Shown piece by piece: positions 17,999-37,608 of a DNA stretch of 64,000 bases; within the stretch, counting starts at the first letter, position 1, and every line of letters begins with the position of its first letter. Position numbers and translations under genes: made by a program. The stretch is from Alphaproteobacteria bacterium (GTDB lineage: Bacteria > Pseudomonadota > Alphaproteobacteria > SP197). The notes under the pieces are model-generated. The model had not been told where the DNA came from. It saw only the letters and a program-made list of their open reading frames with translations, and ran no database searches. The stretch lies in assembly GCA_964291265.2 (NCBI GenBank), contig OZ219747.1:3168001-3232000 (forward strand). The letters are read 5' to 3'.

Positions 17999-18073
17999 GG
18001 GCGCGTAGCTCAGCGGGAGAGCACTACGTTGACATCGTAGGGGTCGCTGGTTCAATCCCAGCCGCGCCCACCA
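17999..18073 (+). tRNA. tRNA-Val(GAC)
   Basis: GGGCGCG/CGCGCCC acceptor stem, anticodon arm CTACG-TTGACAT-CGTAG, GGTTCAATCC T-arm, encoded CCA. Confidence 0.97.
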
Positions 18074-19460: not shown

Positions 19461-21112
19461 GGGTGTAGTTCTCGTATGGCGAAGCCAAGTCAATGATTTA
19501 TCACGGTCGTACGGTCGCGATGGAGCGGCAAATACGGGGTTTCGTGACAATTGCCCGTTGGACGAAGGCCGGATTTTGTCACGGTGGCAGGGCTTGGCGG
19601 TGGATGCGGGAACGCTCCGCACCGCAAGATGCGATATGATGCTGGCTTGAAACCACAACATCAGGAGCGCTCCCATGTCAGTGTCACAGCTTCGGCCTTC
19701 CGCGTCCATCGATCTTCTCGGCTTGCCGCCTCGGGTTGTCGAAGCGGTCACGCAAGTGACCGCGGTGTGTCATCGACAGCTTGGTTCAGAGCGCTCTGCC
19801 GAGGCCTTCGAGGAAGCGGAGCGGCGGGTGCTTGAGAGCGTGCACGCGCTTGGCTGCGAGATCCTGGGTGCCTGTGCCGAGGCCCGGGACGACGGTGCGC
19901 CCCGGATCGAACGGGACGGGCAGAACTGGTTCCGTGTGGCGCCGACGCCGAAGACGATCATGACCTCGCTCGGCCCGGTGACCTTTCGGCGTGCGCGCTA
20001 TCGCACCGGCGGGCACTGCCGGTCGCTGATGCCGGTGGACGAAAGCCTGGGCCTCGTCGACGACTACCTGACACGGCCGGCGGCTCAGCTTGGGCTGATG
20101 ATGATGGTCCACTGCACGGCGCGGGAAGCGGAGGCGTTCTTCGGCAAGCTCGGCGCCATGACGCCGTCTGTGAGCACCTTGCAGCGCTTGAGCCTGACCA
20201 TGCAGGAGCGTTGGGAACGTCTCGGCCCGCAGGCCCTGGATGGTATCCGGGAAGCCGAGGACATCCCGCAGGACGCGGTCACCGCCTCGGTCTCGCTCGA
20301 CGGCGTCATGGTGGCGCTGCGGGCCGGCGAGGACGGCCGTAGCGAGGCCTGCTGGCGCGAGGCGGCCTGTGGCACAGTCTCCTTCCACGACGCCGACGGT
20401 GAGCGCCTGAAGACCGTCTATCTCGGCCGCATGCCCGAGCGCGGCAAGTGCACGCTGAAGGCGCAGCTGGCAAGCGAGGTCGCGCATATCAGGCGCAAGC
20501 GTCCCGAGATCAGGATCAGCGCCATCGCCGACGCCGCCGCCGACAACTGGACCTTCCTCTCTGGTCTTGAACCCGAAACCGAGGTGATCGACTTCTGGCA
20601 TGCCTGCGAGCATCTGCGCGTGGTGGCCGACCATGCAGCGGCGCCCCACTGGTTCGAGAAGTACCGCGAGATCCTGCGTCACGACCCCCGCGGCATCGAC
20701 AAGGTGATCCGGGCGCTGCGCCACCTTCGCGACACCGCCAAGCCGGCGGGCCGAGCCGACATCGACAGGGAACTGGCCTTCTTCCGCAAGCATCGCCACC
20801 GCATGCGCTACCACGCACTGAAGCAACAGGGGATCGCCATCGGCTCGGGACTTGTCGAGGCAGCCAACAAGACCCTCGTCACACAGCGCATGAAGCGCTC
20901 CGGCATGCGCTGGCGCATCGTCGGCGGACAAGCCGTTCTCACCTTCCGCGCCCTGCTCAAATCAGGCCGCTTCGAGAGCGCGTGGACCGCCATGATCGAG
21001 GGCGACGACGCACCAGCCAACGACAACATCAACCCACATCACACCCCGGCGCCGGCCGCATGAGATGAAACAGTGGAACTGATTTTCAAATAGACATATA
21101 AAACTCACACCC
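19461..21112 (+). mobile_element. ISKra4-family insertion sequence
   Basis: Imperfect IRs gggtgtagttctcgtatg (19461) and revcomp gggtgtgagttttatatg (ending 21112); no TSD seen. Confidence 0.7.
19675..21063 (+). CDS. ISKra4-family transposase
   Basis: SLDGVMV, ADAAADNW, IDFWHACEHL, IGSGLVEAANKTLVTQRMKRSGMRW. Confidence 0.88.
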   Translation: MSVSQLRPSASIDLLGLPPRVVEAVTQVTAVCHRQLGSERSAEAFEEAERRVLESVHALGCEILGACAEARDDGAPRIERDGQNWFRVAPTPKTIMTSLGPVTFRRARYRTGGHCRSLMPVDESLGLVDDYLTRPAAQLGLMMMVHCTAREAEAFFGKLGAMTPSVSTLQRLSLTMQERWERLGPQALDGIREAEDIPQDAVTASVSLDGVMVALRAGEDGRSEACWREAACGTVSFHDADGERLKTVYLGRMPERGKCTLKAQLASEVAHIRRKRPEIRISAIADAAADNWTFLSGLEPETEVIDFWHACEHLRVVADHAAAPHWFEKYREILRHDPRGIDKVIRALRHLRDTAKPAGRADIDRELAFFRKHRHRMRYHALKQQGIAIGSGLVEAANKTLVTQRMKRSGMRWRIVGGQAVLTFRALLKSGRFESAWTAMIEGDDAPANDNINPHHTPAPAA

Positions 21113-21160
21113 TCCGTCATCAGAGGGGGTGAGTAGATACCACCGGGCAGTGATATCTCC

Positions 21161-21946
21161 ATGCCTTCCAAGGCGGACGAAATCCGGGCCTACGCCCTAG
21201 AGCGATACGTGCGGCCTTGGCGGGGCTCCGACGAAAACCGCCTCGTTATTCGTGCGGGCGACATCGTCAAAGGTATGCGGTTGCACAACGCCACGCCGAA
21301 CGTATGCAGTTCCCTTGCGAGCCGTAAGTTCCAGCACGATGCCGGTATCGTCCTCGTTCGTCGTGAGGGTCCGCATCAAAGCACGACCACAACGTTTCAC
21401 TATGAGCCCGTCCGATCGACCCTTGATCCTCCAACGCGCCCCGGAAATACTCCACCTCCCGCCCGAATCGTCGGCAATCGCGTAGCCACCGTCTGGGTCT
21501 CCGTCCCCGACGACTGCTGGCGGAGTGCCGATCTGTGTCTGGTTTCCTGTGTCAGCGTGAAGCAATCCGCCGCGGCACCGGCCAGGGACCTGTACGTTTC
21601 TCCCTGGTTTCAGAAAGCTCGCGCTTGCGTCGAAGCACTTGGTTGCCCGTGGTACATCCTGTCCGTGAAGCATGGGCTCCTTGATCCGGGATCGACGATC
21701 GAACCTTATGACGAGACGCTGAAGGCCATGCCGGTGTACCGGCGACGTACCTGGGCACGCGGTGTGATTGGGGACCTCGCTCCGCGCTTGGCGAGTGTCG
21801 ACACCGTGACCCTCTTCGCGGGAACGGCATATCGCGAGTTCCTTGAACCGGAATTGCGTGGTCAGGGGCTCAAGCTCTATGTACCGATGCAGGGAATGCG
21901 CATCGGCCAGCAGCTCTCATGGCTGTCCGGCCAGGACCGTTCGTGA
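21161..21946 (+). CDS. Two-domain protein: small N-terminal putative DNA-binding domain plus DUF6884-like domain
   Basis: N-term ADEIRAYALERYV..IRAGDI..PNVCSSL; Pro-rich linker; C-term LVSCVSVK..ARDLYVSPWF..ILSVKHGLL..IEPYDETL..PMQGMRIGQQLSWL. Confidence 0.7.
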   Translation: MPSKADEIRAYALERYVRPWRGSDENRLVIRAGDIVKGMRLHNATPNVCSSLASRKFQHDAGIVLVRREGPHQSTTTTFHYEPVRSTLDPPTRPGNTPPPARIVGNRVATVWVSVPDDCWRSADLCLVSCVSVKQSAAAPARDLYVSPWFQKARACVEALGCPWYILSVKHGLLDPGSTIEPYDETLKAMPVYRRRTWARGVIGDLAPRLASVDTVTLFAGTAYREFLEPELRGQGLKLYVPMQGMRIGQQLSWLSGQDRS

Positions 21947-22692
21947 ACGCCACTGAGCTGACGCCCGGCCGCATCGCCGATTCCCTTCGCTTCTACGCGC
22001 TTCTTTCACGCATCTCAGAGCGAACCGGTGGATATAGATATCTCGCGACCTGCGACGGGCGCATGGAGTGGCCTCGCCGCGGCGTGTACTTCTTCTTCGA
22101 GCCAGACGAGCCCCGAATCGATCCTGGCCTTGGTCTACGTGTGGTACGGATCGGCACCCATGCGCTGAAGCCGGCGTCCCGAACGTCGTTATGGAATCGA
22201 CTCTCGCAGCATCGGGGCAGCTCACGATCCGGCATGGGCAATCACCGTGGGTCGATATTTCGGCTGATCGTTGGCGCGGCGCTCGCGCGCCGTGCCGTTA
22301 CATCGTTACCGTCGAGTTGGGGAGTCGGCTCGGACACAAGCGCCGCCGCTCGTAAGCTCGGCTTGGACCGCTCGACCGTGCAGTGCGAAGAGGCCGATCT
22401 CGAGCGGCGGGTCAGCGAGTATATTGGCCAAATGCCGTTCCTGTGGCTCGGCGTCGACGACCCGCCGGGCCCGGCCAGCCTGCGCGGTGTGATCGAGCGA
22501 AACACCATCGCTTTGCTCAGCCACGCCCAAACTCCTGCCGTTGATACCCCGTCAGACCGGTGGCTCGGCGGGTTCAGTGATCGAGAGATGGTGCGCGCAT
22601 CCGGACTGTGGAACAATCATCACGTCGCAGAACCACACGATCCTTCATTTCTCGACGAGATGGACACGCTCGTAGCCCGCTTCTGCGAGTGA
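21943..22692 (+). CDS. Putative GIY-YIG-like nuclease
   Basis: RGVYFFF..RVVRIGTH..LWNRLSQH and a later IERNTI Glu; GTGA overlap with upstream gene. Confidence 0.6.
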   Translation: MNATELTPGRIADSLRFYALLSRISERTGGYRYLATCDGRMEWPRRGVYFFFEPDEPRIDPGLGLRVVRIGTHALKPASRTSLWNRLSQHRGSSRSGMGNHRGSIFRLIVGAALARRAVTSLPSSWGVGSDTSAAARKLGLDRSTVQCEEADLERRVSEYIGQMPFLWLGVDDPPGPASLRGVIERNTIALLSHAQTPAVDTPSDRWLGGFSDREMVRASGLWNNHHVAEPHDPSFLDEMDTLVARFCE

Positions 22693-22799: not shown

Positions 22800-23865
22800 C
22801 TCACGCCTTATCCGGGTCGGGCTGGAGTTTGCGGCCTTTGCCTTGCGCCTCGTCCCGGGTTCCGGCGGGCCCGCTCCGGCATTGCCTCAGGGTCTCGTGG
22901 AGCGTCTTCGCATCGTCCGTGACCAGTTCGACTCTGTGGCGCGCGGGCGGCTGATCTCGACGTAGAAGCTCTTCTGCGTCGACAGTTTCGGGGGTTTCGC
23001 CTCCATCACCGCGATCACCTTGTCGACGGTGCGCCCCTGAAAGGGATGCACGGTCGAGGCCCAAGCATGGCCGAGATGGCGCAACTGCGGGTCACTCTTG
23101 CCGAATTCGAGCATCCGGCCGTCGCCGAGCCGGAAGGCGACAACTTCGTCCGGCGAATAGTTCACCGCGACCGCTTTCTCGGCACTCGCATGGCCATGGT
23201 AGACCAGCCGCTCGGCCTGAAGACGAGGCTGCGCATGACGCCGTCGCGGGCGAGGCGTTGAGCGGATGTGGCCGTTGATCCCGATGCGGAGCGCATGGCT
23301 CGGCGTCACCGGCCCGGTGTTCTCGCGTTCGTGGGCGGAGAGCTTCAACAACCAGGGCGCGGCGGCCGCGCCAGCGAGGTTATCGGGTTTGACCTCCGCC
23401 CCCGGTCGCCGAGCTTTCCGAAGACCCTGCAGACCTCGTCGGCGAGGCTCGCCCGCACTGCCTCTTGCAGGTTGGTGTCCTCCTGGCGCAGAATCTCGTC
23501 CCTTGCCGCCGTTTTCATGCCGGCGGCCTGGAGCTGGGCGAAGGACTTATCGGCATCCACCGCGTCAAGCTGCTTCTCAACAGCCCACCGGCACCACGCG
23601 GGGTATGCGGATGGCGGCGGCGATCCGGAGCAGGTCGCGGGTCTGGACGGTCGAGGCAAGCGAGCCCTCGTCGACCCCCAGCATGGTCTTGCGGAACGCC
23701 GCGCGCATTTCCCTGGCGCCCTTCCGGGTCAGCCGGCCCTCGGCGACGCCGGCATTGCGGGCGAGGAAGCGCCGCAGGGTCTCGGTCTCGATCCAGGCTT
23801 CAGGCCGCCGACACGAGAGCCGCCCTTCGCGGCAAGCTGCCGGTCGAGGTTGAGCACCCATGGCT
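22800..23865 (-). pseudogene. TrwC/TraI (MOBF) relaxase-helicase C-terminal remnant
   Basis: Fragments in several frames: VDEGSLAST..DLLRIA, KQLDAVDA..FAQLQAAGMKTA..DEILRQ, HAWASTVHPFQGRTVDKVIAVM..QKSFYVEISR. Confidence 0.8.
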
Positions 23866-24134
23866 ATGCCGAGCGGAACGACGATCAGGCAGGCCGTGAA
23901 AGGGGGGCGAAGATGCGGAAACAGCTCTCGAGAACGTCGGCGATGTAGTTTTTTTCCACGATCAGGGTGATGAGGGCGCCAAAGATCTCCTGGGGCGCCG
24001 GGAGGAATCGCTGACTCTCTTCAGGGATGATGTGGTGACCGCGTGAGCGCCTTCAGGCAGATTGATGATGCGTTGATCGGGCAATTTAGTGGACATGAGC
24101 TTTCGCGCTGCGCTTGGTTTGCGGTTCTTGAAGG

Positions 24135-24998
24135 CTACTTGGAAGGGAAGGCTGGTGTTCGTGCCTTGAGGACGTCGTTCCAGTCTTTGTGTCCGTCTGG
24201 GGGTCTCATGCGGAGAGCTCTTGGGTCTTGGCTGACGAGGCGCTCGGCGGCCTGTTCTCCGACGGGATCGGCGTCGAAGGCGACGAGGATGCGCTTTGGC
24301 GTCCAGGCTTCGGCCCATGTTGGGAGACGGTAGGCGATGCCGGCGGTTGACAGGATCACGGTAGCGGATTGCCGACATTCCTTGAGGCACCATGCGGAGA
24401 GGGCGTCGATGGCGCTTTCGGTGATGATGATGGTGCGTGGCATGGAGCGGTCCACGGGGATCCAGAAGCTGCCGGCGGCCTTGCGTGATCCACGCGCCAT
24501 GGCTCTGTACTGCTTTCCGTCTGCGTTGGGGACGGTACCGACGATCTCGGCGCCGGAGAGGTCTCTTTGTGCGTTGGTGCATGTGAAGACGGCGTTTCTG
24601 CGTTCGTCGGCGGCGACGAGGCCGTGCTGTCGGCAAGCGTCCAGGCAACGGTCTGGCAGGCGGCGTTCATGGGCGAGGTAGTGGCGTACGACGTGCCAGG
24701 CTTCCTCGCAGTGCGTTGGTGTTCTCGGCCCCTTGCCGCCGGAGCGTGCGGTGAGGAGTGCGACGGCGTCGTTGAAGCTGCAGCGGTGTGCATGCATGAC
24801 GAGATCGATGGCGCCGCCACCGCCGGACTGGGTGATGTGGTCGAACCAGCGTTGTTGGTTGACGCTGATGACGGATCCGTGGCGCTTGAAGCGTCGCGGG
24901 TCGCGCGGGTCTCTTCGGTAGCCGAGCCGCAGGGCGAGTGGTTCGAGGGGCTGGTTGCGGATGTCATCGAGATGCTGATTGTCCCAGGACCGGATCAT
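24135..24998 (-). CDS. DUF3991/toprim-domain primase-like protein
   Basis: From ATG 24998: WFDH..GGGGAIDLVMH..FNDAV, ITESAIDALS, VAFDADPVGE, HKDWND. Confidence 0.85.
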   Translation of the reverse strand: MIRSWDNQHLDDIRNQPLEPLALRLGYRRDPRDPRRFKRHGSVISVNQQRWFDHITQSGGGGAIDLVMHAHRCSFNDAVALLTARSGGKGPRTPTHCEEAWHVVRHYLAHERRLPDRCLDACRQHGLVAADERRNAVFTCTNAQRDLSGAEIVGTVPNADGKQYRAMARGSRKAAGSFWIPVDRSMPRTIIITESAIDALSAWCLKECRQSATVILSTAGIAYRLPTWAEAWTPKRILVAFDADPVGEQAAERLVSQDPRALRMRPPDGHKDWNDVLKARTPAFPSK

Positions 24999-25033
24999 GG
25001 TCTGTCGAGCCTCCTGCGTGGTGGACGGGGGGT

Positions 25034-25098
25034 GGTTCCCGTTGGCGGTTCCCACCTGAACTCCCAGGGTGAACGGGAACCGGGAACCGGGAACCGCC
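25034..25098. repeat. GGGAACC heptamer cluster (iteron-like): 2 inverted plus 3 tandem copies
   Basis: ggttccc at 25034 and 25047; gggaacc at 25075, 25082, 25089; 10-bp IR ggcggttccc/gggaaccgcc. Confidence 0.8.
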
Positions 25099-25132
25099 TG
25101 GCGTCGGGGCGTTTTGCGCCTGGTTGTTGCGG

Positions 25133-26080
25133 TCAGGCTTTGGCGACGCGATAGGCACCGGGACCGTCCTGCGCGACACGTCCTTCCTGGACGAGCTTGG
25201 CCAGAAGCGTGGCGACGGTCGTGTTCCGTGTTGGGACGCGGTCCCGGACCTGGCGCAGCGAGAGCGGGGCATCGGCGTCGGCGAGGACCTGGACGATGCG
25301 CTGTTCGGGGGTTGGCGGCTGCGGCCTGGCGCCGTCTGGTTCCTGTTGCCGCAGCTGCAGGGCGGCTCCGTTGCCGCTGTCGGTGAGTTCGATGTCGAGA
25401 TCGGCGAGTCCGGGTGCGGCGCGGTGTTCGACGGTCATGAGGATGGTTTCGTGGCGGCGCCGCAGGTAGAGGTTGCTGTCGCCCCATGCGTGCAGCTCGC
25501 TGCTTCCGCGCAAGGCCTGTCCGGGCCGGCTGGCGGCGCTCTTGCGTGCGTGGTGGACGAGCAGCACGGCGGCGCCGGAGTGTCGCTGCACGTCGCGCAG
25601 GAAGCCGAGGATCGGCGCGATCTCGGCGACGGCGTTTTCGTCGACGCCGTGCAGGCGGACGAGGGGGTCGAGGATGAGCAGGCGGGAGCCGTGACGCTCG
25701 ACGGTCTCGAGCAGGCTCTGGCGGTCGGTTGGGTGGTCGAGGCGCAGTGCGGGGACGTCGATGACGGCGATGTCGAGGGTGTCGAAGTCGGCGCCGGCTG
25801 CGGCGGCGATGCCCTGGAGGCGGCGTCGCACGATGTGGCCGGCGTCCTCGGCGGCGAACATGAGCACCGGTCCGGGGTGCACGGCCGGGAAGCGGCGCAG
25901 ACAGGGGACGCCGGCGGCGACGGCGACGGCGAGATCGAGGGCGAGGAAGGACTTTCCGCACTTGGGTTCGCCGCCGATGATGCCGACGGCCTCGCGGCCC
26001 CACAGGCCGTCGACGAGCCACTGCCCCTCGGTTGGCCGGTCCTCGAGTTCGGCCGGGCTGCGGGTTGGCAGGCCGATCAT
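25133..26080 (-). CDS. RepA-like AAA (RecA-fold) helicase with C-terminal winged helix
   Basis: WLVDGLW, GEPKCGKS Walker A, AAED, LILDPL, LVHHARK, LRGSS; C-terminal wHTH-like segment. Confidence 0.85.
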   Translation of the reverse strand: MIGLPTRSPAELEDRPTEGQWLVDGLWGREAVGIIGGEPKCGKSFLALDLAVAVAAGVPCLRRFPAVHPGPVLMFAAEDAGHIVRRRLQGIAAAAGADFDTLDIAVIDVPALRLDHPTDRQSLLETVERHGSRLLILDPLVRLHGVDENAVAEIAPILGFLRDVQRHSGAAVLLVHHARKSAASRPGQALRGSSELHAWGDSNLYLRRRHETILMTVEHRAAPGLADLDIELTDSGNGAALQLRQQEPDGARPQPPTPEQRIVQVLADADAPLSLRQVRDRVPTRNTTVATLLAKLVQEGRVAQDGPGAYRVAKA

Positions 26081-26907
26081 CGTGTGCGCCTCGGCGGGAT
26101 GGGTTCGCCCCAGGTTTCGAGGAAGAGCTTTTCGTCGAGCACCTCGCGGTCGGTGTCGAGGGCGACAGCGAGGAGGTTGTCGGCGAGGATGGTCAGGGAG
26201 CGCGGATTGCCGTCTGCATGGACGACGAGGGTCTCCTTGAGGCCGGGGGTCATGAGGCCTGGATTGCCGGCGGCGTCGAGCAGGTGGTCGAGCAGGCGGA
26301 GCAGTTCGTCGGGTTCGCAGCGCGTCATGACGAGGCGTTGACGGACCCGCGAGGCGACGGCTTGCAGGTCGGGGCTGTGCAGCTTGGCGAGCAGGCGGCT
26401 GTCGCCGGCCAGGACGACGCTGAGGATGGCGCGCGAGTCGAACTCCGTGGAGGCGAGCAGGCGCAGTTCGGTGAGCACGGCCTGCGGCATCTCCTGGGCC
26501 TCGTCGACGAGCAGGACCGGGCGCATGCGGGTGTCCTCGAGATGGGTGAGCCAGCACTCGCGCAAGGCCTTGAAGCCGGCCCAGAGGTTCCGGCGCAGGG
26601 TCGTGATGCCGAAGAGGTCGGTCATCTCGCGGTAGAAGTCTGCGGTGCTCGACGAGGGATGGGCGAGAAGGGCGACGTCGAGGCCCTCCGCGGTCTCGAG
26701 ACGCTCGTCGAGCAGGCGCAGGGCGACGCTCTTGCCGGTGCCATGCTCGCCGGCCACCACGGCGAAGCCGCCCTGGCGCACGAGCTGACGCTCGATCCTG
26801 CGGCAGAAGCTGTCGATCGCGGGCGTTGCGAGAAGGCCCTCGACCGGCAGGTCGGCGGCGAAGGGGTTCCACTTGAGGCCGTAATGGGTGAGGTGTTGGC
26901 GGTTCAT
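26077..26907 (-). CDS. ExeA-family AAA+ ATPase (TnsC/MuB-like transposition helper)
   Basis: YGLKWNPF, GEHGTGKS, LLVDEAQEM, VLAG, GNPR. Confidence 0.88.
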   Translation of the reverse strand: MNRQHLTHYGLKWNPFAADLPVEGLLATPAIDSFCRRIERQLVRQGGFAVVAGEHGTGKSVALRLLDERLETAEGLDVALLAHPSSSTADFYREMTDLFGITTLRRNLWAGFKALRECWLTHLEDTRMRPVLLVDEAQEMPQAVLTELRLLASTEFDSRAILSVVLAGDSRLLAKLHSPDLQAVASRVRQRLVMTRCEPDELLRLLDHLLDAAGNPGLMTPGLKETLVVHADGNPRSLTILADNLLAVALDTDREVLDEKLFLETWGEPIPPRRTR

Positions 26908-28421
26908 GACATGTCTCCCTGATCGTTGTTGTCCTTGCCTTCGTCGTCCGGGCCGGCATCCTTGCCGAAGGGCAACCATGCCGGGGGCAGGCCGGTGGCG
27001 TCCTGCTCGTCGCGCAGGCGCTTGAGCAGCGGCGCCGGCCCGGTCTGTGGCTTCACCTCGTCGTCTTCTCTCCGGCGCCCGGTCCGGCGGCGGAGCCCCT
27101 CGGCGTTGCGAGACTTGTCCACCGGACGCAGGGTCGAGATGCGGTCCCCGGTGCGGCCGTCGACCATGTCGATGCCGGAGAGGTCCCAGCGGGCGACGCG
27201 CAGGTCGATCTCGCGCAGGTGGCGCCACGGCGCCGGCAGTTGATAGCGGACACTCGCCACCGTCACCGTGGCGTCGGAGCGTCGCACCTTGCGACGCACC
27301 TTGATGCGGAAGGCGGCCCGGAGTTCGCTGCTGTCCGGGCATGTCCGCGAGGCGTCCTCGCTGTCGATCACGCGCCTGAGCGGCGTGACCCCCGTCTCGC
27401 GGTGTACGCGGCGGTGATACTCGCGCTCGACCCAGATGACGGTGGCGTCGTTCAGGTCCTGCAGGGTCAGGGTCTCGACGTTCTCGAGCATCGCCATCAG
27501 GCGGCCCTCGACCTGGGCGAACAGCACCTCCTGCTTGCCGTTCTGGTACGGGCTGCGGACAAGCGTGTGGTGGTGCAGCACGCCGAGGGCGTGCAGTCCC
27601 TCCTGCACCTCCCCGGCCGTCATCGCCGATCCGTTGTCGGTCAGAAGGGACCGCGGCAGCCCTCGCTTCATGAAGGCCTGGCTGATGCCGTGAACGAAGA
27701 TCTCCGTGGTCTCCCCGAGATACCACTGCATGTGGCAGACGAGACGCGAATGGTCGTCGATGAAGCTGAGCAGGATCGGCGTCCTCCACTCCCCGGACGG
27801 CGTCAGCACGCGACAGGTCCGCGCATGGTGGAAGTCGGCGTGCCACAGGGCATGGCTGCGCGAGACCTCGTAGCTCAGCACCTCGCGCCCCTCGACCGCA
27901 GGCCGCTCCGCTTCACCACCGAACTTCCGCTGCCGCCGCCGCCGCTCCAGGCCCGCCGAACGCATGACCCGGGTCAGCGTCGCATAGGACGGCATCGGCC
28001 CGAGCGAAGGGTCGGCCTCGACCAGCGCGCAAAGGTTGTCGTGGTGGAGCTGAACCGACCACGTGGGGTGCGCCCTGTACTGGTCGCGCAAGGCCGCCAT
28101 CAGCAGGGGTGAGACGCTCCGCGCACGACCGGCGTCGCAGCGCACCCGACGGCGCAGCGCCCGCACCGGATCCCGGTCGGCCGACCGCGCCTTGTAGTAC
28201 CAGCGCTCGATCGTCGACACCGAGAAGCGGATCGTGCCGCCCCTGACGGGATGCTCCCAGTCCCGCCGCGACAGCCGTTGAAGCTCGGCCCGCAGACCCC
28301 CCTTCGGCGGCGGCGACGCCAGCAGCGGGCCAACCACCGCAAAGCGCAGCCGCGTCCAGGCGTCCCCGGCGTCCGCTTCGTCCTTCGTCACCACGACGGC
28401 CTTCCTCCCTCGTCGTCCCAT
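26904..28421 (-). CDS. DDE-type integrase/transposase (rve core, Mu-like C-terminus)
   Basis: N-terminal HTH (STIERW), LWHADFH, IDDHSR, TDNGSAM, PYQNGKQE, RKVRRSDATVTV. Confidence 0.9.
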   Translation of the reverse strand: MGRRGRKAVVVTKDEADAGDAWTRLRFAVVGPLLASPPPKGGLRAELQRLSRRDWEHPVRGGTIRFSVSTIERWYYKARSADRDPVRALRRRVRCDAGRARSVSPLLMAALRDQYRAHPTWSVQLHHDNLCALVEADPSLGPMPSYATLTRVMRSAGLERRRRQRKFGGEAERPAVEGREVLSYEVSRSHALWHADFHHARTCRVLTPSGEWRTPILLSFIDDHSRLVCHMQWYLGETTEIFVHGISQAFMKRGLPRSLLTDNGSAMTAGEVQEGLHALGVLHHHTLVRSPYQNGKQEVLFAQVEGRLMAMLENVETLTLQDLNDATVIWVEREYHRRVHRETGVTPLRRVIDSEDASRTCPDSSELRAAFRIKVRRKVRRSDATVTVASVRYQLPAPWRHLREIDLRVARWDLSGIDMVDGRTGDRISTLRPVDKSRNAEGLRRRTGRRREDDEVKPQTGPAPLLKRLRDEQDATGLPPAWLPFGKDAGPDDEGKDNNDQGDMS

Positions 28422-28443
28422 GGGAGGAAGGCCCTATACGGTC

Positions 28444-29058
28444 CTATGTCATCGCACTACAGGCACTCTCTGCGGGCGGCGACAGACCCTCGACGATCCT
28501 GCAGAAGCCGGTCCACGGCATGAGCCAGACCAGGCTCCGCAGAAGGCGCGATCGAAACGATCCGCCGCGCATCAAGCGCACCAGGGCCACAAGCGGAGGC
28601 TCGTCCGCCTCCACCGCCAGATCGCCACGTTTCCAGCGCCACGCCGCCGTCGCCGGGAACCTCTCCCGCCACCATCGACGCCACCGGCCAAGCGTCCTCT
28701 CCGGGATGCCAGACATGCGGCTCGCCTTCGCCAGGGGAACACTGCCGCACAGAACCAGGAGGCTCGCAGCCAGGTACACCGGCGCCGCACGGAACCTCCG
28801 GCCGAAGAAGCGCACCGAGGGCGGAGTCGTCCGGCTCCTGCACTCAGCACAGCAGAAGCTGAAGCGGCGGTTGTCGCCGCGAAGAGCAGGCGCAAGCGCG
28901 TGCGGCTTGCGCGGATACCGCGCACTGTGAAGGCGACCGCCGCAATGCGGGCATCCCTCCAGGCGGCAGCGCTCCGCCTCGGCCGCATCAATCCTCTCAA
29001 GGAGAGGCCAGACATGAGCGCAGGAAAGTATGGGACCCGGGAAGGAAACGTGCGACAT
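28444..29058 (-). CDS. Zn-finger/HTH protein (DUF6431-like) of DDE-ExeA elements
   Basis: CPHCGGRLH..YPRKP, FSFCCAECRSRTTPPSVRF, RTLGRWRRWW. Confidence 0.7.
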   Translation of the reverse strand: MSHVSFPGPILSCAHVWPLLERIDAAEAERCRLEGCPHCGGRLHSARYPRKPHALAPALRGDNRRFSFCCAECRSRTTPPSVRFFGRRFRAAPVYLAASLLVLCGSVPLAKASRMSGIPERTLGRWRRWWRERFPATAAWRWKRGDLAVEADEPPLVALVRLMRGGSFRSRLLRSLVWLMPWTGFCRIVEGLSPPAESACSAMT

Positions 29059-29095
29059 TGACTGGCCTCCGGTGATCTCACCGTCACGGAGACAA

Positions 29096-29132
29096 GCCCC
29101 TCGGCCGACTTCTTGCAAGTCGGTCGAGGGGC
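29096..29132. other. 16-bp stem hairpin upstream of the element's first gene
   Basis: gcccctcggccgactt-cttgc-aagtcggtcgaggggc, one G-T pair. Confidence 0.75.
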
Positions 29133-29526
29133 AAACACACCAGACCAGCAGACAATTCAAGCAGAAACGACGGAATCCACGTCAAAAATCGCGCAAACGC
29201 TTACCGCGTTCCTCGATGATGAAGGTTCCGGTTGCTCCAGCGAGACCGGGGACGAGGGCGGTTCTGTCCAATGGCACGGTGCGCGATTCGAAGAGCGATG
29301 CACTGCGCCTGGCGATCCGATTCATATCCTTGCCTCGGCGCTTTCGTAGTCTGACCACGCCGGATTCCGATCGTCCGGGCCCTTGCCACTCATGGATGGA
29401 ACCTCTCCACGGCGGTGACGATATCAACGGTCGCACATGCCGATCAAGGAGCCGCGGCGACACCTTGAATTGAGAGGGTCGATATGCGGAAATGGCCTCT
29501 CTGCAACCGAATCCGGGAGAGACCCG

Positions 29527-33431: not shown

Positions 33432-35385
33432 CCGAAGTTCCAGCGTCGATCAAGTGCAACTGCTTGATATAAATGGCATTCGATGGATCTCAGAGGCGTC
33501 TGACTGGGTACATCACGGCTTCACGCCCAGGAGCTTGAGTGCTTTTCTCTGGAGCGGCGTGGGCCGCGTGGTGACCTGGAAGGGTTGGGCGCCCGCAAGG
33601 CGGGGCGCCACGGTGTTGCGGGTGATGGTCGCGAGATCATCGAGGAGAGTGCGGAAGCTGTGCACCGGATCACCCCCGGGTGTCCTCTTGGTTGCCGCCT
33701 TGGCCCGGGCGCTCGCCGAGACTTCTGCCGGCGCCACGACGGACGGCCGCCGGGCCTCGGCGCCTTCGGCATCCTCGTCGTCGAACAGCATGGGCTTCAG
33801 TTTCTGGCGCATGTGCCATTCGATGTAGTAGGCGAGCATGCACAGGAAGACATGGGCGCGGACCCGGGGTTCGGTGCGGTGGTAGACGGGGCGGACCTTC
33901 AGATCCACGGTCTTCAGGCTGCGGAAGGCCCGTTCCACCGAACTCAGCCGCTTGTAGGCGCGCACTGTGCCGGGACCGTCGAGCTCGCTCTGCGGCAGGC
34001 TGGTGCGGATCACGTAGAGGCCGTCGAGCCTGGCCTCGGCGGCGATGGCAGCCTCATCGCGCCCATAGGTGAAGACACCCTCGTCGTCGATGGACCACGT
34101 GAAGTGCTTCGCCATCTTGTACTTGCCGATGACCTTGCCGACCCTCTCCCCGATCTTGTCGGCACCCTTGAGACGGCGCTTGTCGCGCCGTGTCGCTGCG
34201 GCGATCGGTTCAAGCAGGGCCTCGGTGGCCTCGAGCAGTTCCTGGCGCTTGCGGGCCCGGTCCTCGGCCAGCAGGGGGTTGCGGCAGACCATGAGGCGTT
34301 CGCCGGGATACGCATCGCTGGTGATCTCCACCAGGTCCCTCTCGTCGAAGAGCGACATCTCGACGTCACCCGCCTCCACCAGTGAACGGATGGCCGGTCC
34401 CCTCAAGGCGCTGATCCAGTCCAGGCCTGCGGGCTTCACCTCCTCGCGTATGCGCGCCTCGGTCAGCATCCCCCGGTCTCCCACCAGCACCACCTTCGCC
34501 AGGGAGAAGCGCTCCTGCAGCGTGGTGATCTGTGAGGCAACCGTCCCGGGGTCCGCCGTGTTGCCGGGGAACACTTCCACCGACACTGGACAGCCGTCCC
34601 GATCGCACAGAAGGCCGAACTCGATCTGCAGCTTGCCCTTCTTGCCATCCCGGGAATGACCCCTCCTTGCCAGGGGACACGCTCTCCCCTCCATCCATAC
34701 CGAGGTCAGGTCATAGAGCACCAGGCAGCCTTCTTTGAGGCGCTGCTTCGCCAGGGACCGCTCGATCCTCTCCTGACGCTCCAGGAGCCAGTCCATGGCG
34801 CCATAGAGGGCGTCCTCGTCCATCTCCGCATCGAGGACCTCGCCCAGGGTGCTGACCGCCGTGGCCTCGGCCAGCCCCCTGGCCGTGGCCAGCTTCGAGG
34901 CGGGCTCGAGGATGCGTGCCACGATCATGGCCAGGACCTGATCGCGCTCAGGCGAGGGCTTCGGGTCGATCAACCTGTCCAGTCCCAGCTTCTTCAGGGT
35001 TCCCAGCACCGCGGCGACATGCCCATGGGGGAGGGAGCGGACGATGTCGAAGGCATCGTCGAGATGTCGGACTGCTGTTCCTCCCTTGAGGAGGATGCGC
35101 AATCCCTCGACGAGAGTGGGGGACCACTTGGAGAGGTTGGCGATGGTGCGCTTCTTGACCTTTCCGTTTTCGCGATAGGACTCGCGGAGCAGGATGGCGG
35201 GCGGCGAGGAGCGGTTGGGGACGGCTTCGATGTACATGGCTACTGTACATAGGCACGGCACTGCCGTGTGTCAAGCACAAAATGCATCCGTACATGGGTA
35301 CATTGTGAAGTCCGTCAAACCCGATAAACCGCGCAAGATCAACGACTTGACGCGACTTCCAGCTGGAAAACGTCCGGAACTTCGG
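33432..35385 (-). mobile_element. IS1634-family element copy 1, 6-bp TSD CCTAGG
   Basis: IRs ccgaagttcc/ggaacttcgg; cctagg at 33426-33431 and 35386-35391. Confidence 0.93.
33513..35237 (-). CDS. IS1634-family transposase
   Basis: LYDLTS, GHSRD, GNTAD, VGDRGM, VERAFRSLK, VRAHVFLCMLAY. Confidence 0.93.
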   Translation of the reverse strand: MYIEAVPNRSSPPAILLRESYRENGKVKKRTIANLSKWSPTLVEGLRILLKGGTAVRHLDDAFDIVRSLPHGHVAAVLGTLKKLGLDRLIDPKPSPERDQVLAMIVARILEPASKLATARGLAEATAVSTLGEVLDAEMDEDALYGAMDWLLERQERIERSLAKQRLKEGCLVLYDLTSVWMEGRACPLARRGHSRDGKKGKLQIEFGLLCDRDGCPVSVEVFPGNTADPGTVASQITTLQERFSLAKVVLVGDRGMLTEARIREEVKPAGLDWISALRGPAIRSLVEAGDVEMSLFDERDLVEITSDAYPGERLMVCRNPLLAEDRARKRQELLEATEALLEPIAAATRRDKRRLKGADKIGERVGKVIGKYKMAKHFTWSIDDEGVFTYGRDEAAIAAEARLDGLYVIRTSLPQSELDGPGTVRAYKRLSSVERAFRSLKTVDLKVRPVYHRTEPRVRAHVFLCMLAYYIEWHMRQKLKPMLFDDEDAEGAEARRPSVVAPAEVSASARAKAATKRTPGGDPVHSFRTLLDDLATITRNTVAPRLAGAQPFQVTTRPTPLQRKALKLLGVKP

Positions 35386-35654: not shown

Positions 35655-37608
35655 CCGAAGTTCCAGCGCCGATCAAGTGCAAGTGCTTGATATAAATGGC
35701 ATTCGATGGATCTCAGGGGCGTCTGACTGGGTACATTACGGCTTCACGCCCAGGAGCTTGAGTGCTCTTCTCTGGAGCGGCGTGGGCCGCGTGGTGACCT
35801 GGAAGGGTTGGGCGCCCGCAAGGCGGGGCGCCACGGTGTTGCGGGTGATGGTCGCGAGATCATCGAGGAGAGTGCGGAAGCTGTGCACCGGATCACCCCC
35901 GGGCGTCCTCTTGGTTGCCGCCTTGGCCCGGGCGCTCGCCGAGACTTCTGCCGGCGCCACGACGGACGGCCGCCGGGCCTCGGCGCCTTCGGCATCCTCG
36001 TCGTCGAACAGCATGGGCTTCAGTTTCTGGCGCATGTGCCATTCCACGTAGTAGGCGAGCATGCACAGGAAGACATGGGCGCGGACCCGGGGTTCGGTGC
36101 GGTGGTAGACGGGGCGGACCTTCAGATCCACGGTCTTCAGGCTGCGGAAGGCCCGTTCCACCGAACTCAGCCGCTTGTAGGCGCGCACTGTGCCGGGACC
36201 GTCGAGCTCGCTCTGCGGCAGGCTGGTGCGGATCACGTAGAGGCCGTCGAGCCTGGCCTCGGCGGCGATGGCAGCCTCATCGCGCCCATAGGTGAAGACA
36301 CCCTCGTCGTCGATGGACCACGTGAAGTGCTTCGCCATCTTGTACTTGCCGATGACCTTGCCGACCCGCTCCCCGATCTTGTCGGCACCCTTGAGACGGC
36401 GCTTGTCGCGCCGTGTCGCTGCGGCGATCGGTTCAAGCAGGGCCTCGGTGGCCTCGAGCAGTTCCTGGCGCTTGCGGGCCCGGTCCTCGGCCAGCAGGGG
36501 GTTGCGGCAGACCATGAGGCGTTCGCCGGGATACGCATCGCTGGCGATCTCCACCAGGTCCTTCTCGCCGAAGAGCGACATCCCGACGTCACCCGCCTCC
36601 ACCAGTGAACGGATGGCCGGTCCCCTCAAGGCGCTGATCCAGTCCAGGCCTGCGGGCTTCACCTCCTCGCGTATCCGCGCCTCGGTCAGCATCCCCCGGT
36701 CTCCCACCAGCACCACCTTCGCCAGGGAGAAGCGCTCCTGCAACGTGGTGATCTGTGATGCCACCGTCCCGGGGTCCGCCGTGTTGCCGGGGAACACTTC
36801 CACCGACACTGGACAGCCGTCCCGATCGCACAGAAGGCCGAACTCGATCTGCAGCTTGCCCTTCTTGCCGTCCCGGGAATGACCCCTCCTGGCCAGGGGG
36901 CACGCTCTCCCCTCCATCCATACCGAGGTCAGGTCATAGAGCACCAGGCAGCCCTCTTCGAGGCGCCGCTTCGCCAGGGACCGCTCGATCCTCTCCTGAC
37001 GCTCCAGGAGCCAGTCCATGGCGCCGTAGAGGGCGTCCTCGTCCATCTCCGCATCGAGGACCTCGCCCAGGGTGGAGACCGCCGTGGCCTCGGCCAGCCC
37101 CCTGGCCGTGGCCAGCTTCGAGGCGGGCTCGAGGATGCGTGCCACGATCATGGCCAGGACCTGATCGCGCTCATGCGAGGACTTCGGGTCGATCAGCCTG
37201 TCCAGTCCCAGCTTCTTCAGGCCTCCCAGCACCGCGGCGACATGCCCGTGGGGTAGGGAGCGGACGATGTCGAAGGCATCGTCGAGATGTCGGACTGCTG
37301 TTCCTCCCTTGAGGAGGATGCGCAATCCCTCGACGAGGGTGGGGGACCACTTGGAGAGGTTGGCGATGGTACGCTTCTTGACCTTTTCGTCTTCGCGATA
37401 GGACTCGCGGAGCAGGATGGCGGGCGGCGAGGAGCGGTTGGGGACGGCTTCGATGTACATGGCTACCGTACATAGGCACAGCACTGCCGTGTGTCAAGCA
37501 CAAAATGCATCCGTACATGGGTACACTGTGAAGTCCGTCAAACCCGATAAACCACGCAATATCAACGACTTGACGCGATTTCCAGCTGGAAAACGTCCGG
37601 AACTTCGG
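35655..37608 (-). mobile_element. IS1634-family element copy 2, 6-bp TSD GCTAGA
   Basis: Same IRs; gctaga at 35649-35654 and 37609-37614. Confidence 0.93.
35736..37460 (-). CDS. IS1634-family transposase
   Basis: Near-identical to 33513..35237 with scattered substitutions. Confidence 0.93.
   Translation of the reverse strand: MYIEAVPNRSSPPAILLRESYREDEKVKKRTIANLSKWSPTLVEGLRILLKGGTAVRHLDDAFDIVRSLPHGHVAAVLGGLKKLGLDRLIDPKSSHERDQVLAMIVARILEPASKLATARGLAEATAVSTLGEVLDAEMDEDALYGAMDWLLERQERIERSLAKRRLEEGCLVLYDLTSVWMEGRACPLARRGHSRDGKKGKLQIEFGLLCDRDGCPVSVEVFPGNTADPGTVASQITTLQERFSLAKVVLVGDRGMLTEARIREEVKPAGLDWISALRGPAIRSLVEAGDVGMSLFGEKDLVEIASDAYPGERLMVCRNPLLAEDRARKRQELLEATEALLEPIAAATRRDKRRLKGADKIGERVGKVIGKYKMAKHFTWSIDDEGVFTYGRDEAAIAAEARLDGLYVIRTSLPQSELDGPGTVRAYKRLSSVERAFRSLKTVDLKVRPVYHRTEPRVRAHVFLCMLAYYVEWHMRQKLKPMLFDDEDAEGAEARRPSVVAPAEVSASARAKAATKRTPGGDPVHSFRTLLDDLATITRNTVAPRLAGAQPFQVTTRPTPLQRRALKLLGVKP

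Follow-up and report, generated by a model that had tools for sequence, protein, structure and literature searches.

In SaPI origins, short iterons lie directly downstream of rep and face each other about a centre; the C-terminal winged helix of the Rep protein binds to them. Self-loading has been described for Reps of the SF3 and SF6 types (PMC9371898; 10.64898/2026.10.17.759575). The IncQ replicon of RSF1010 consists of the RepA helicase, the RepB primase, the iteron binder RepC and the sites ssiA and ssiB, together with oriV (PMC6925257), and mini-hairpins have been reported at priming sites including RSF1010 ssiA (PMC13037366). Among transposons, Tn6049 (3.5 kb) of Cupriavidus metallidurans CH34 reaches 12 copies in that strain (PMC2864759) and is reported to make a 4-bp target duplication (PMC2864759, PMC4739549). 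IS21, which encodes a DDE transposase and an AAA+ helper (IstA/IstB; PMC11208146), has been proposed to use copy-out/paste-in (PMC11208146; 10.1101/2023.06.07.543989). The IEE PrimPol-helicase and the casposons are cases in which a primase/helicase or a polymerase is tied to the synthesis of transposon DNA. The gene for IEE stands apart from the copy-out IS elements that it excises (10.1101/2023.06.07.543989), and casposons use Cas1, unlike the DDE transposon described here. No facing-repeat array was seen in either.

The locus lies in a window of 64,000 nucleotides, which is the whole stretch of DNA that was analysed. A gap of 134 bp between the stop codon of a helicase gene (25133) and the ATG of a primase gene (24998) holds two GGGAACC sites facing three others across 21 bp. 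A preliminary description had claimed this gap and, within it, two GGTTCCC heptamers facing three GGGAACC heptamers. Both claims hold exactly, with GGTTCCC at 25034 and 25047 and GGGAACC at 25075, 25082 and 25089. The single perfect 10-bp inverted repeat that it had noted is also present, but the number is two (25034-43/25072-81 and 25044-53/25089-98), and these cross and are not nested. The 13-bp spacing of the primase-side sites, with a decayed middle site, is also seen among the arrays of relatives.

The heptamer alone is not enriched across the window (16 copies observed, 11.2 expected), and five copies in the span of the array have a Poisson probability of ~2e-12. The 4.8-Mb genome was scanned with every 7-mer for five non-overlapping copies within ~60 bp, matches up to 100 bp apart being merged. 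Of the 14 regions found, six contain both orientations, and each of these is the GGGAACC array in one of six copies of the same element. The array is the only two-way 7-mer cluster of such density in the genome.

The resemblance to the SaPI Rep/PriRep origin extends to the short facing repeats directly downstream of the helicase gene, the C-terminal winged helix, the primase gene alongside and the lack of a separate initiator or loader. However, the SaPI helicase is of the SF3 or SF6 type, whereas that of the window has the RepA/DnaB fold (SF4 type). The SaPI origin has an AT-rich core and extends over ~300 bp, in which there are 6-12 iterons; here ~60 bp hold 4-6 sites and a GC-rich spacer. 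The primase gene here is downstream and optional, and the carriers are DDE transposons rather than a phage satellite.

The carrier in the window is a transposon filled by five genes, in the order orf1, rve/DDE transposase, ExeA-like ATPase, AAA_25 helicase, the gap and DUF3991-Toprim primase (Table 1). The genome contains six full copies with 99.3-99.5% identity, two of them interrupted by insertions, as well as fragments. All six full copies have matched 5-bp target duplications, and the empty site is present in runs X2 and X3 (joint 24037 to 29203). The array-bearing 5.2-kb element is an active transposon. Target duplications of 4-5 bp were matched in 62 of 70 related copies, four others being unmatched and four scored as 3 or 6 bp; the matched duplications indicate simple insertions.

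Table 1. Features of the array-bearing transposon in the window, and of the folded segment found in relatives.
Feature	Position	Strand	Remarks
Whole transposon	24044..29203	-	5,160 bp; ends TAAGCG...CGCTCA; 5-bp duplication at 24039-43 and 29204-08
orf1	28444..29058	-	small Cys-rich/HTH protein; 46% identity over residues 10-145 to Tn6049 orf1
rve/DDE transposase	26904..28421	-	IS481-like, below family cut-off; 47.5% identity to Tn6049 transposase
ExeA-like AAA_22 ATPase	26077..26907	-	53% identity to Tn6049 ATPase
RepA-like SF4-type helicase (AAA_25) with C-terminal winged helix	25133..26080	-	Pfam AAA_25, E 2.7e-37
Winged-helix domain	25145..25309	-	residues 257-311, numbered from the Ile after the start Met
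Helicase-side arm	25075..25095	+	three tandem GGGAACC sites, 7-bp period
Spacer	25054..25074		21 bp, central CCCAGGG (25063-69)
Primase-side arm	25034..25053	-	two GGGAACC sites (25034-40, 25047-53), 13 bp apart
DUF3991 + Toprim primase	24135..24998	-	motifs E194 and D242-x-D244; optional among relatives
Folded segment	L009:7075-7222		equivalents in L001, L006, L007, L039, L041, L068, L089, L090, L097, L101

Tn6049, located by its published ends (PMC2864759, PMC4739549), has orf1, the transposase and the ExeA ATPase in the same order (identities in Table 1). Its ends are related, with six extra outer bases, and its fourth slot is occupied by a 71-aa ORF; it has no helicase, array or primase. 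The array-bearing family makes duplications of 4-5 bp and has short imperfect terminal repeats. The transposase of the window scores 110 bits against the IS481 family model NF033577, under the cut-off of 224, and no protein of the window matched the IS21 family models (IstA/IstB). Like IS21, the element pairs a DDE transposase with an AAA+ protein, but this ATPase is of the ExeA type and is probably a TnsC/IstB-type helper.

Beside the insertion, window positions 22890-23861 hold broken frames resembling a conjugative relaxase-helicase (weak AAA_30 match), which we take to be TrwC/TraI. A UPF0236 transposase-like gene, presumably ISKra4-like, is followed by a DUF6884 gene and an unannotated 257-aa gene (19675-22692) near a tRNA-Val gene (17999-18073); these are possibly defence or island cargo. 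Adjacent, near-identical genes for a 582-aa DDE_Tnp_1 transposase, assumed here to be IS1634-like, are situated at 33513-35261 and 35736-37484. Elsewhere in the genome, one-ended fragments of the element family, with the left or right end only, are found in G000:C2 near 1158810, 1866351, 2768324, 999023, 2434806, 456971 and 1626675. The small contig carries a decayed, frameshifted relative (G000:C1:266701-267600) from which the array and the greater part of the primase gene are missing; it is seen also as a joint 24200-25128 in runs X1-X3.

The best match of the helicase is RSF1010 RepA, both by sequence (E 3e-13) and by Foldseek. The structure model was built from an alignment of 89 sequences (pLDDT 94.3) and replaced a poor model from 14 sequences (pLDDT 57.5). 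RSF1010 RepA (1g8y) is also the closest solved structure, with a VIA-align Z of 24.3 and an rmsd of 2.4 for 215 aligned residues. The RecA/RepA/DnaB fold tops both structure searches with the model, the next closest folds being RadA and Twinkle (Z ~21). Residues K42, E77, D137, H175 and R219, which we take to be those of the catalytic motifs, are nearly or fully invariant in the 89 relatives. In spite of the likeness to IncQ, none of the five genes of the transposon matches RepC or RepB'. The winged helix is instead fused to the helicase, and the primase is of the Toprim/DUF3991 kind. The helicase family differs from IncQ RepA also in its whereabouts: among 72,556 plasmid records no close relative was found, the best match having 30-34% identity.

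The C-terminal segment of the helicase that was earlier quoted as winged-helix-like is present and is modelled as three helices and a wing, with a pLDDT of 91-97 per block and a weak HTH_IclR match (E 7.5e-5). In the model, R284 and N285 (25223-25228) sit at the start of the third helix (285-297), which by winged-helix convention is probably the recognition helix. R284 is invariant in all 51 scored elements among the matches listed. Fold searches with the whole helicase model were filled by matches to the ATPase domain, and no winged-helix match to a solved structure was seen there. By sequence, the winged helix has only weak matches, to Z-DNA-binding winged helices (E ~0.06-0.1).

The question raised at the outset, whether homologous elements keep repeats at the same position, can be answered from 99 loci. 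Besides the window, these comprise 13 distinct elements (78 genome loci), 80 metagenome loci, three viral loci and two loci taken from a phylum sample. Because the scans of genomes and of metagenomes supplied their best 80 matches each, the counts are those of a biased sample. Clustering at 90% identity gave 71 clusters, of which 69 were kept (L095 and L153 had too little downstream DNA). Facing arrays of the GGNAAC type are present directly behind the winged helix in 54 of the 69 clusters among the matches listed, as against 5 of 1,380 dinucleotide shuffles; the search pattern was tuned after viewing the same data, and a few of the misses show decayed arrays by eye. The repeats are thus kept, although the conserved unit is GGNAAC/GNAAC (N = A, G or T) and not the GGGAACC heptamer. 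Among the same matches, the inner gap is 19-23 bp, about two helical turns, in 38 of the 54 arrays. The spacer core is usually CCYTA(G), and in 32 of these 38 arrays the TA lies within 1.5 bp of the dyad centre, where the window has TG. The AT content of the spacer is 43% in the window and averages 36% across the arrays of relatives among the matches listed.

The distribution of the array follows that of the helicase gene. Among the matches listed, it is found in 42 of 54 clusters with a Tn6049-like backbone and in seven of eight with a distant ATPase, mostly with TGTTGT ends. It is also found in all four clusters without ExeA; IS21 IstB is above the NCBIfam cut-off in the three of these with enough upstream DNA, and IstA in the two scanned. 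Both proteins exceed their cut-offs in L112 and L143, as does IstB in L126. No array was found in the helicase-less Tn6049 or its Paraburkholderia relative. In the sequences compared, the array travels with the helicase and not with the transposase.

It is very improbable that the repeats arose by chance slippage or serve as end sites of the transposase. Tandem 7-mers can come from slippage, but facing arrays are as rare in the shuffled sequences as stated above. The array is frequently near the right end of the element, as an end site would be; nevertheless, it stays behind the helicase gene in three transposase families whose ends differ, is lacking in Tn6049 in spite of the 47.5% identical transposase, and is 1 kb from the end in the window. 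A transposase end site was rejected on this distribution.

Of three phage-like relatives at 39-42% identity, two have a GGAACC array after the gene (one scored, one by eye), and terminase genes are present in the phage-like loci L079 and L081. Eight distant relatives were inspected. Three of them (L210, L211 and L213), which are AAA_25 relatives with long N-terminal extensions, have dense two-way arrays of their own, different sequences at the gene end, found de novo; in L209 and L215 such repeats were recognized by eye. At the gene ends of lytic phage relatives at 26-30% identity (L217-L219) and of viral contigs L171-L175 there is no clear array. The scored array is absent from 15 of the 69 clusters among the matches listed, including the L083/L084/L212 lineage, where the helicase gene (L083:1477-3416, L084, L212) lacks an array at its end and continues straight into the gene of a Toprim primase with a CHC2 zinc finger. 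The same helicase and array are present in the true IS21 elements of L112:1011-4402, L126 and L143. In the L108-L112 group, the helicase gene is directly preceded by a small ORF that resembles the fourth gene (71 aa) of Tn6049. Upstream of the ATPase in L039, the contig edge (1-103) has an Rfam match to group II intron D1-D4-6.

GGNAAC varies at its third base (A, G or T), and the two arms of an array agree in 41 of 47 elements among the matches listed. Whether the repeats co-vary with the winged helix, as the preliminary description had asked, was examined after omitting the three viral loci and L083, and then 14 of the remaining 65 elements, in which fewer than three perfect sites shared one majority type. 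Among the 51 elements of clear type in the matches listed, Asn, His or Lys at residue 285 goes with G (14/14) and Pro with T (7/7); any other residue goes with A in 24 of 30, with G in five and with T in one. Residue 285 is first of 311 columns in leave-one-out prediction of the repeat variant (43/51), and first also for changes shared with the repeat on the ATPase-domain tree (8/10). Out of 54 similarly variable columns, one reached eight shared changes, and that column is in the wing. Five same-genus elements (L180, L181, L183, L185 and L186) all fit the pattern and belong to the same clades as the earlier set; L191 and L195, lacking an intact gene end, and L182, identical to L066, were left out.

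However, a nearest-neighbour baseline predicts the variant in 41-43 of the 51 elements, the neighbour by winged-helix domain giving 43. Independent pairs number three on supported branches and eight on all branches, with none discordant (median p 0.25), and significance was not reached on either the ATPase tree or the winged-helix tree, which has 51 columns and is poorly resolved. Thus residue 285 is the best of the 311 columns, but its association with the repeat is not significant when kinship is allowed for. A one-residue recognition code relating residue 285 to the third base of GGNAAC is no more than suggestive, because the baseline is equally good, independent pairs are few, and the adjacent domain and array could be swapped together.

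If the array were an RNA or DNA hairpin serving as a terminator or cruciform, the two arms would likewise be expected to change together, since the stem is then preserved. As DNA, the window segment folds somewhat better than its shuffles (z -2.3 to -2.4), and, among the matches listed, 14 of 38 spacers have a short palindrome at the centre where 6.1 were expected. As RNA, however, the z is only -1.3. The spacer flanks are unpaired (63/228, with 69.6 by chance, among the matches listed), and pairing drops to about one third between the sites and returns at the outer site. There is no terminator- or promoter-like match and no Rfam match at the array, and its left arm is inside the helicase ORF in 14 of 38 cases among the matches listed. 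A continuous stem with a U tract, an intrinsic terminator and a structured RNA were considered and found unsupported by folding, Rfam, the terminator scan and the pairing counts.

The other regulatory possibility is an operator of the primase gene. A Rep operator formed half of the inference drawn earlier, the element's origin being the other half, and the operator reading is disfavoured by the slot that follows the array. A primase gene is present in four of the 54 array-bearing clusters, some loci ending too early to tell, and the array is kept in 14 clusters in which the element ends within 300 bp and no ORF of more than 75 aa follows (both counts among the matches listed). The unpaired spacer flanks and the persistence of the array without a following gene argue against the hairpin and the operator, and a regulatory array of either kind appears quite unlikely.

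In 11 clusters of the close clade, the place of the primase gene is taken by a segment of ~150 nt with CCCGAAGGG and loops of the GCGAAGC type; a CCGAAGG mini-hairpin resembling the one in IncQ ssiA is found in primase-less relatives. In L009 the segment folds strongly in the gene-sense orientation (z -4.3) but not in the opposite one (z -0.5). No Rfam match was found in the 16 loci scanned, and the plasmid records gave four short matches only. The segment is a candidate single-strand priming signal. This is a lead only, since the mini-hairpin motif class is common in the background: as a marker of priming signals it is uninformative across the family, with 23 of 42 primase-less segments having one compared with 101 of 213 coding windows. 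More distant elements have two recurring non-coding motifs 50-250 bp after the array, one with TGTGGGCATCGC and the other with GTGAAACGGAG (L130, L151, L155 and L166; L138, L156 and L163). These are possibly further signals or small passengers.

The rarity of the primase gene would also suit a helicase that lands on the array without starting replication, and unwinds or strips the right end or a strand-transfer intermediate, for example by removing the transposase, with the primase as a passenger. The array is often 40-300 bp from the right end, and the RadA and Twinkle folds are the next closest to that of the helicase. On the other hand, the close clade has a primase gene or a strand-specific folded segment directly after the array, and the symmetric facing arms would suit loading of two rings at an origin better than one-way tracking. 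We consider such stripping improbable.

The facing array is a real, conserved feature of the transposon. Conserved facing repeats that change in step with the tip of the winged helix suggest a likely landing site for the element's own helicase. The array is accordingly described here as a putative compact origin, where the RepA-like helicase would bind and be loaded and would help to copy the element; on the comparative evidence and the SaPI analogy, we hold this to be somewhat probable. Covariation and the analogy with SaPI Rep suggest that the winged helices of the helicase rings would recognize the GGNAAC sites of both arms, and that R284 and residue 285, where the recognition helix begins, would contact the variable base. 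The rings might then load themselves at the array and melt the central pyrimidine-TA-purine step. The Toprim primase would lay the primer, a role that in primase-less relatives may fall to the folded single-strand signal or to a host primase. Least certain is the last step, in which the local fork would serve the replication (copy-out) stage of transposition. A copy-out role is favoured because the carriers include IS21, for which copy-out/paste-in has been proposed, and the second step of that route is replication of the element. With a fork of its own, the element might depend less on host fork-restart proteins. The fork would be accessory and not essential, as Tn6049 moves without carrying the module. 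Against an origin, the spacer is not AT-rich, and the site is ~60 bp long as opposed to ~300 bp with an AT-rich core in SaPIs.

The same binding site might instead support autonomous, plasmid-like replication of an excised circle. A helicase, an origin-like array and a primase make a near-minimal replicon, comparable to repA, repB, repC and oriV of IncQ (PMC6925257), and the same module occurs on phage-like contigs. However, no end-to-end (circle) junction was found in the contigs of the five runs (X1-X5), the fetched loci or the genome, a weak argument since contigs drop rare forms. In run X1 the contig depth of the element is 314-359 and that of the flank 54-56; the ratio of about six matches the six chromosomal copies, although depth is a weak measure. 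The plasmid records, with no close helicase relative, point weakly the same way. An autonomous circle is unlikely.

Beyond the loading site, a wider origin for the module can be put forward tentatively, as possible but rather doubtful. Several unrelated ATPase-using DDE transposon families, namely Tn6049-like elements, the TGTTGT-ended group and IS21, may have captured a phage-derived, self-loading SF4 cassette of helicase, origin and priming function, which would fire an internal fork independent of host restart proteins. The cassette would be swappable; its origin would be recognized by a one-residue code, and priming would fall to a primase in some elements and to a single-strand signal in others. 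In the main texts of the open-access papers searched, no element of the Tn6049 or IS21 type was described as carrying a RepA helicase together with an origin.

The replication step in the transposition of insertion sequences is usually left to host proteins. To our knowledge, this step of copy-out or replicative transposition is poorly resolved. The main interest of the array is that its carrier is a multicopy DDE transposon, which was not noticed at first from the sequence alone. If the module turned out to be a mere passenger, what has been found here would amount to no more than an unusual cargo. A helicase-loading origin is, however, the likely role suggested by comparison, and it would give a self-loading SF4 helicase with a 60-bp site. 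The natural specificity variants (G, T and A) would then provide a swap experiment and possibly orthogonal mini-origins, and the arrays of L210, L211 and L213 form a set for a wider analysis of the code between winged helix and repeat. An element that brings its own helicase, matching site and primase makes the replication step directly testable with five small genes.
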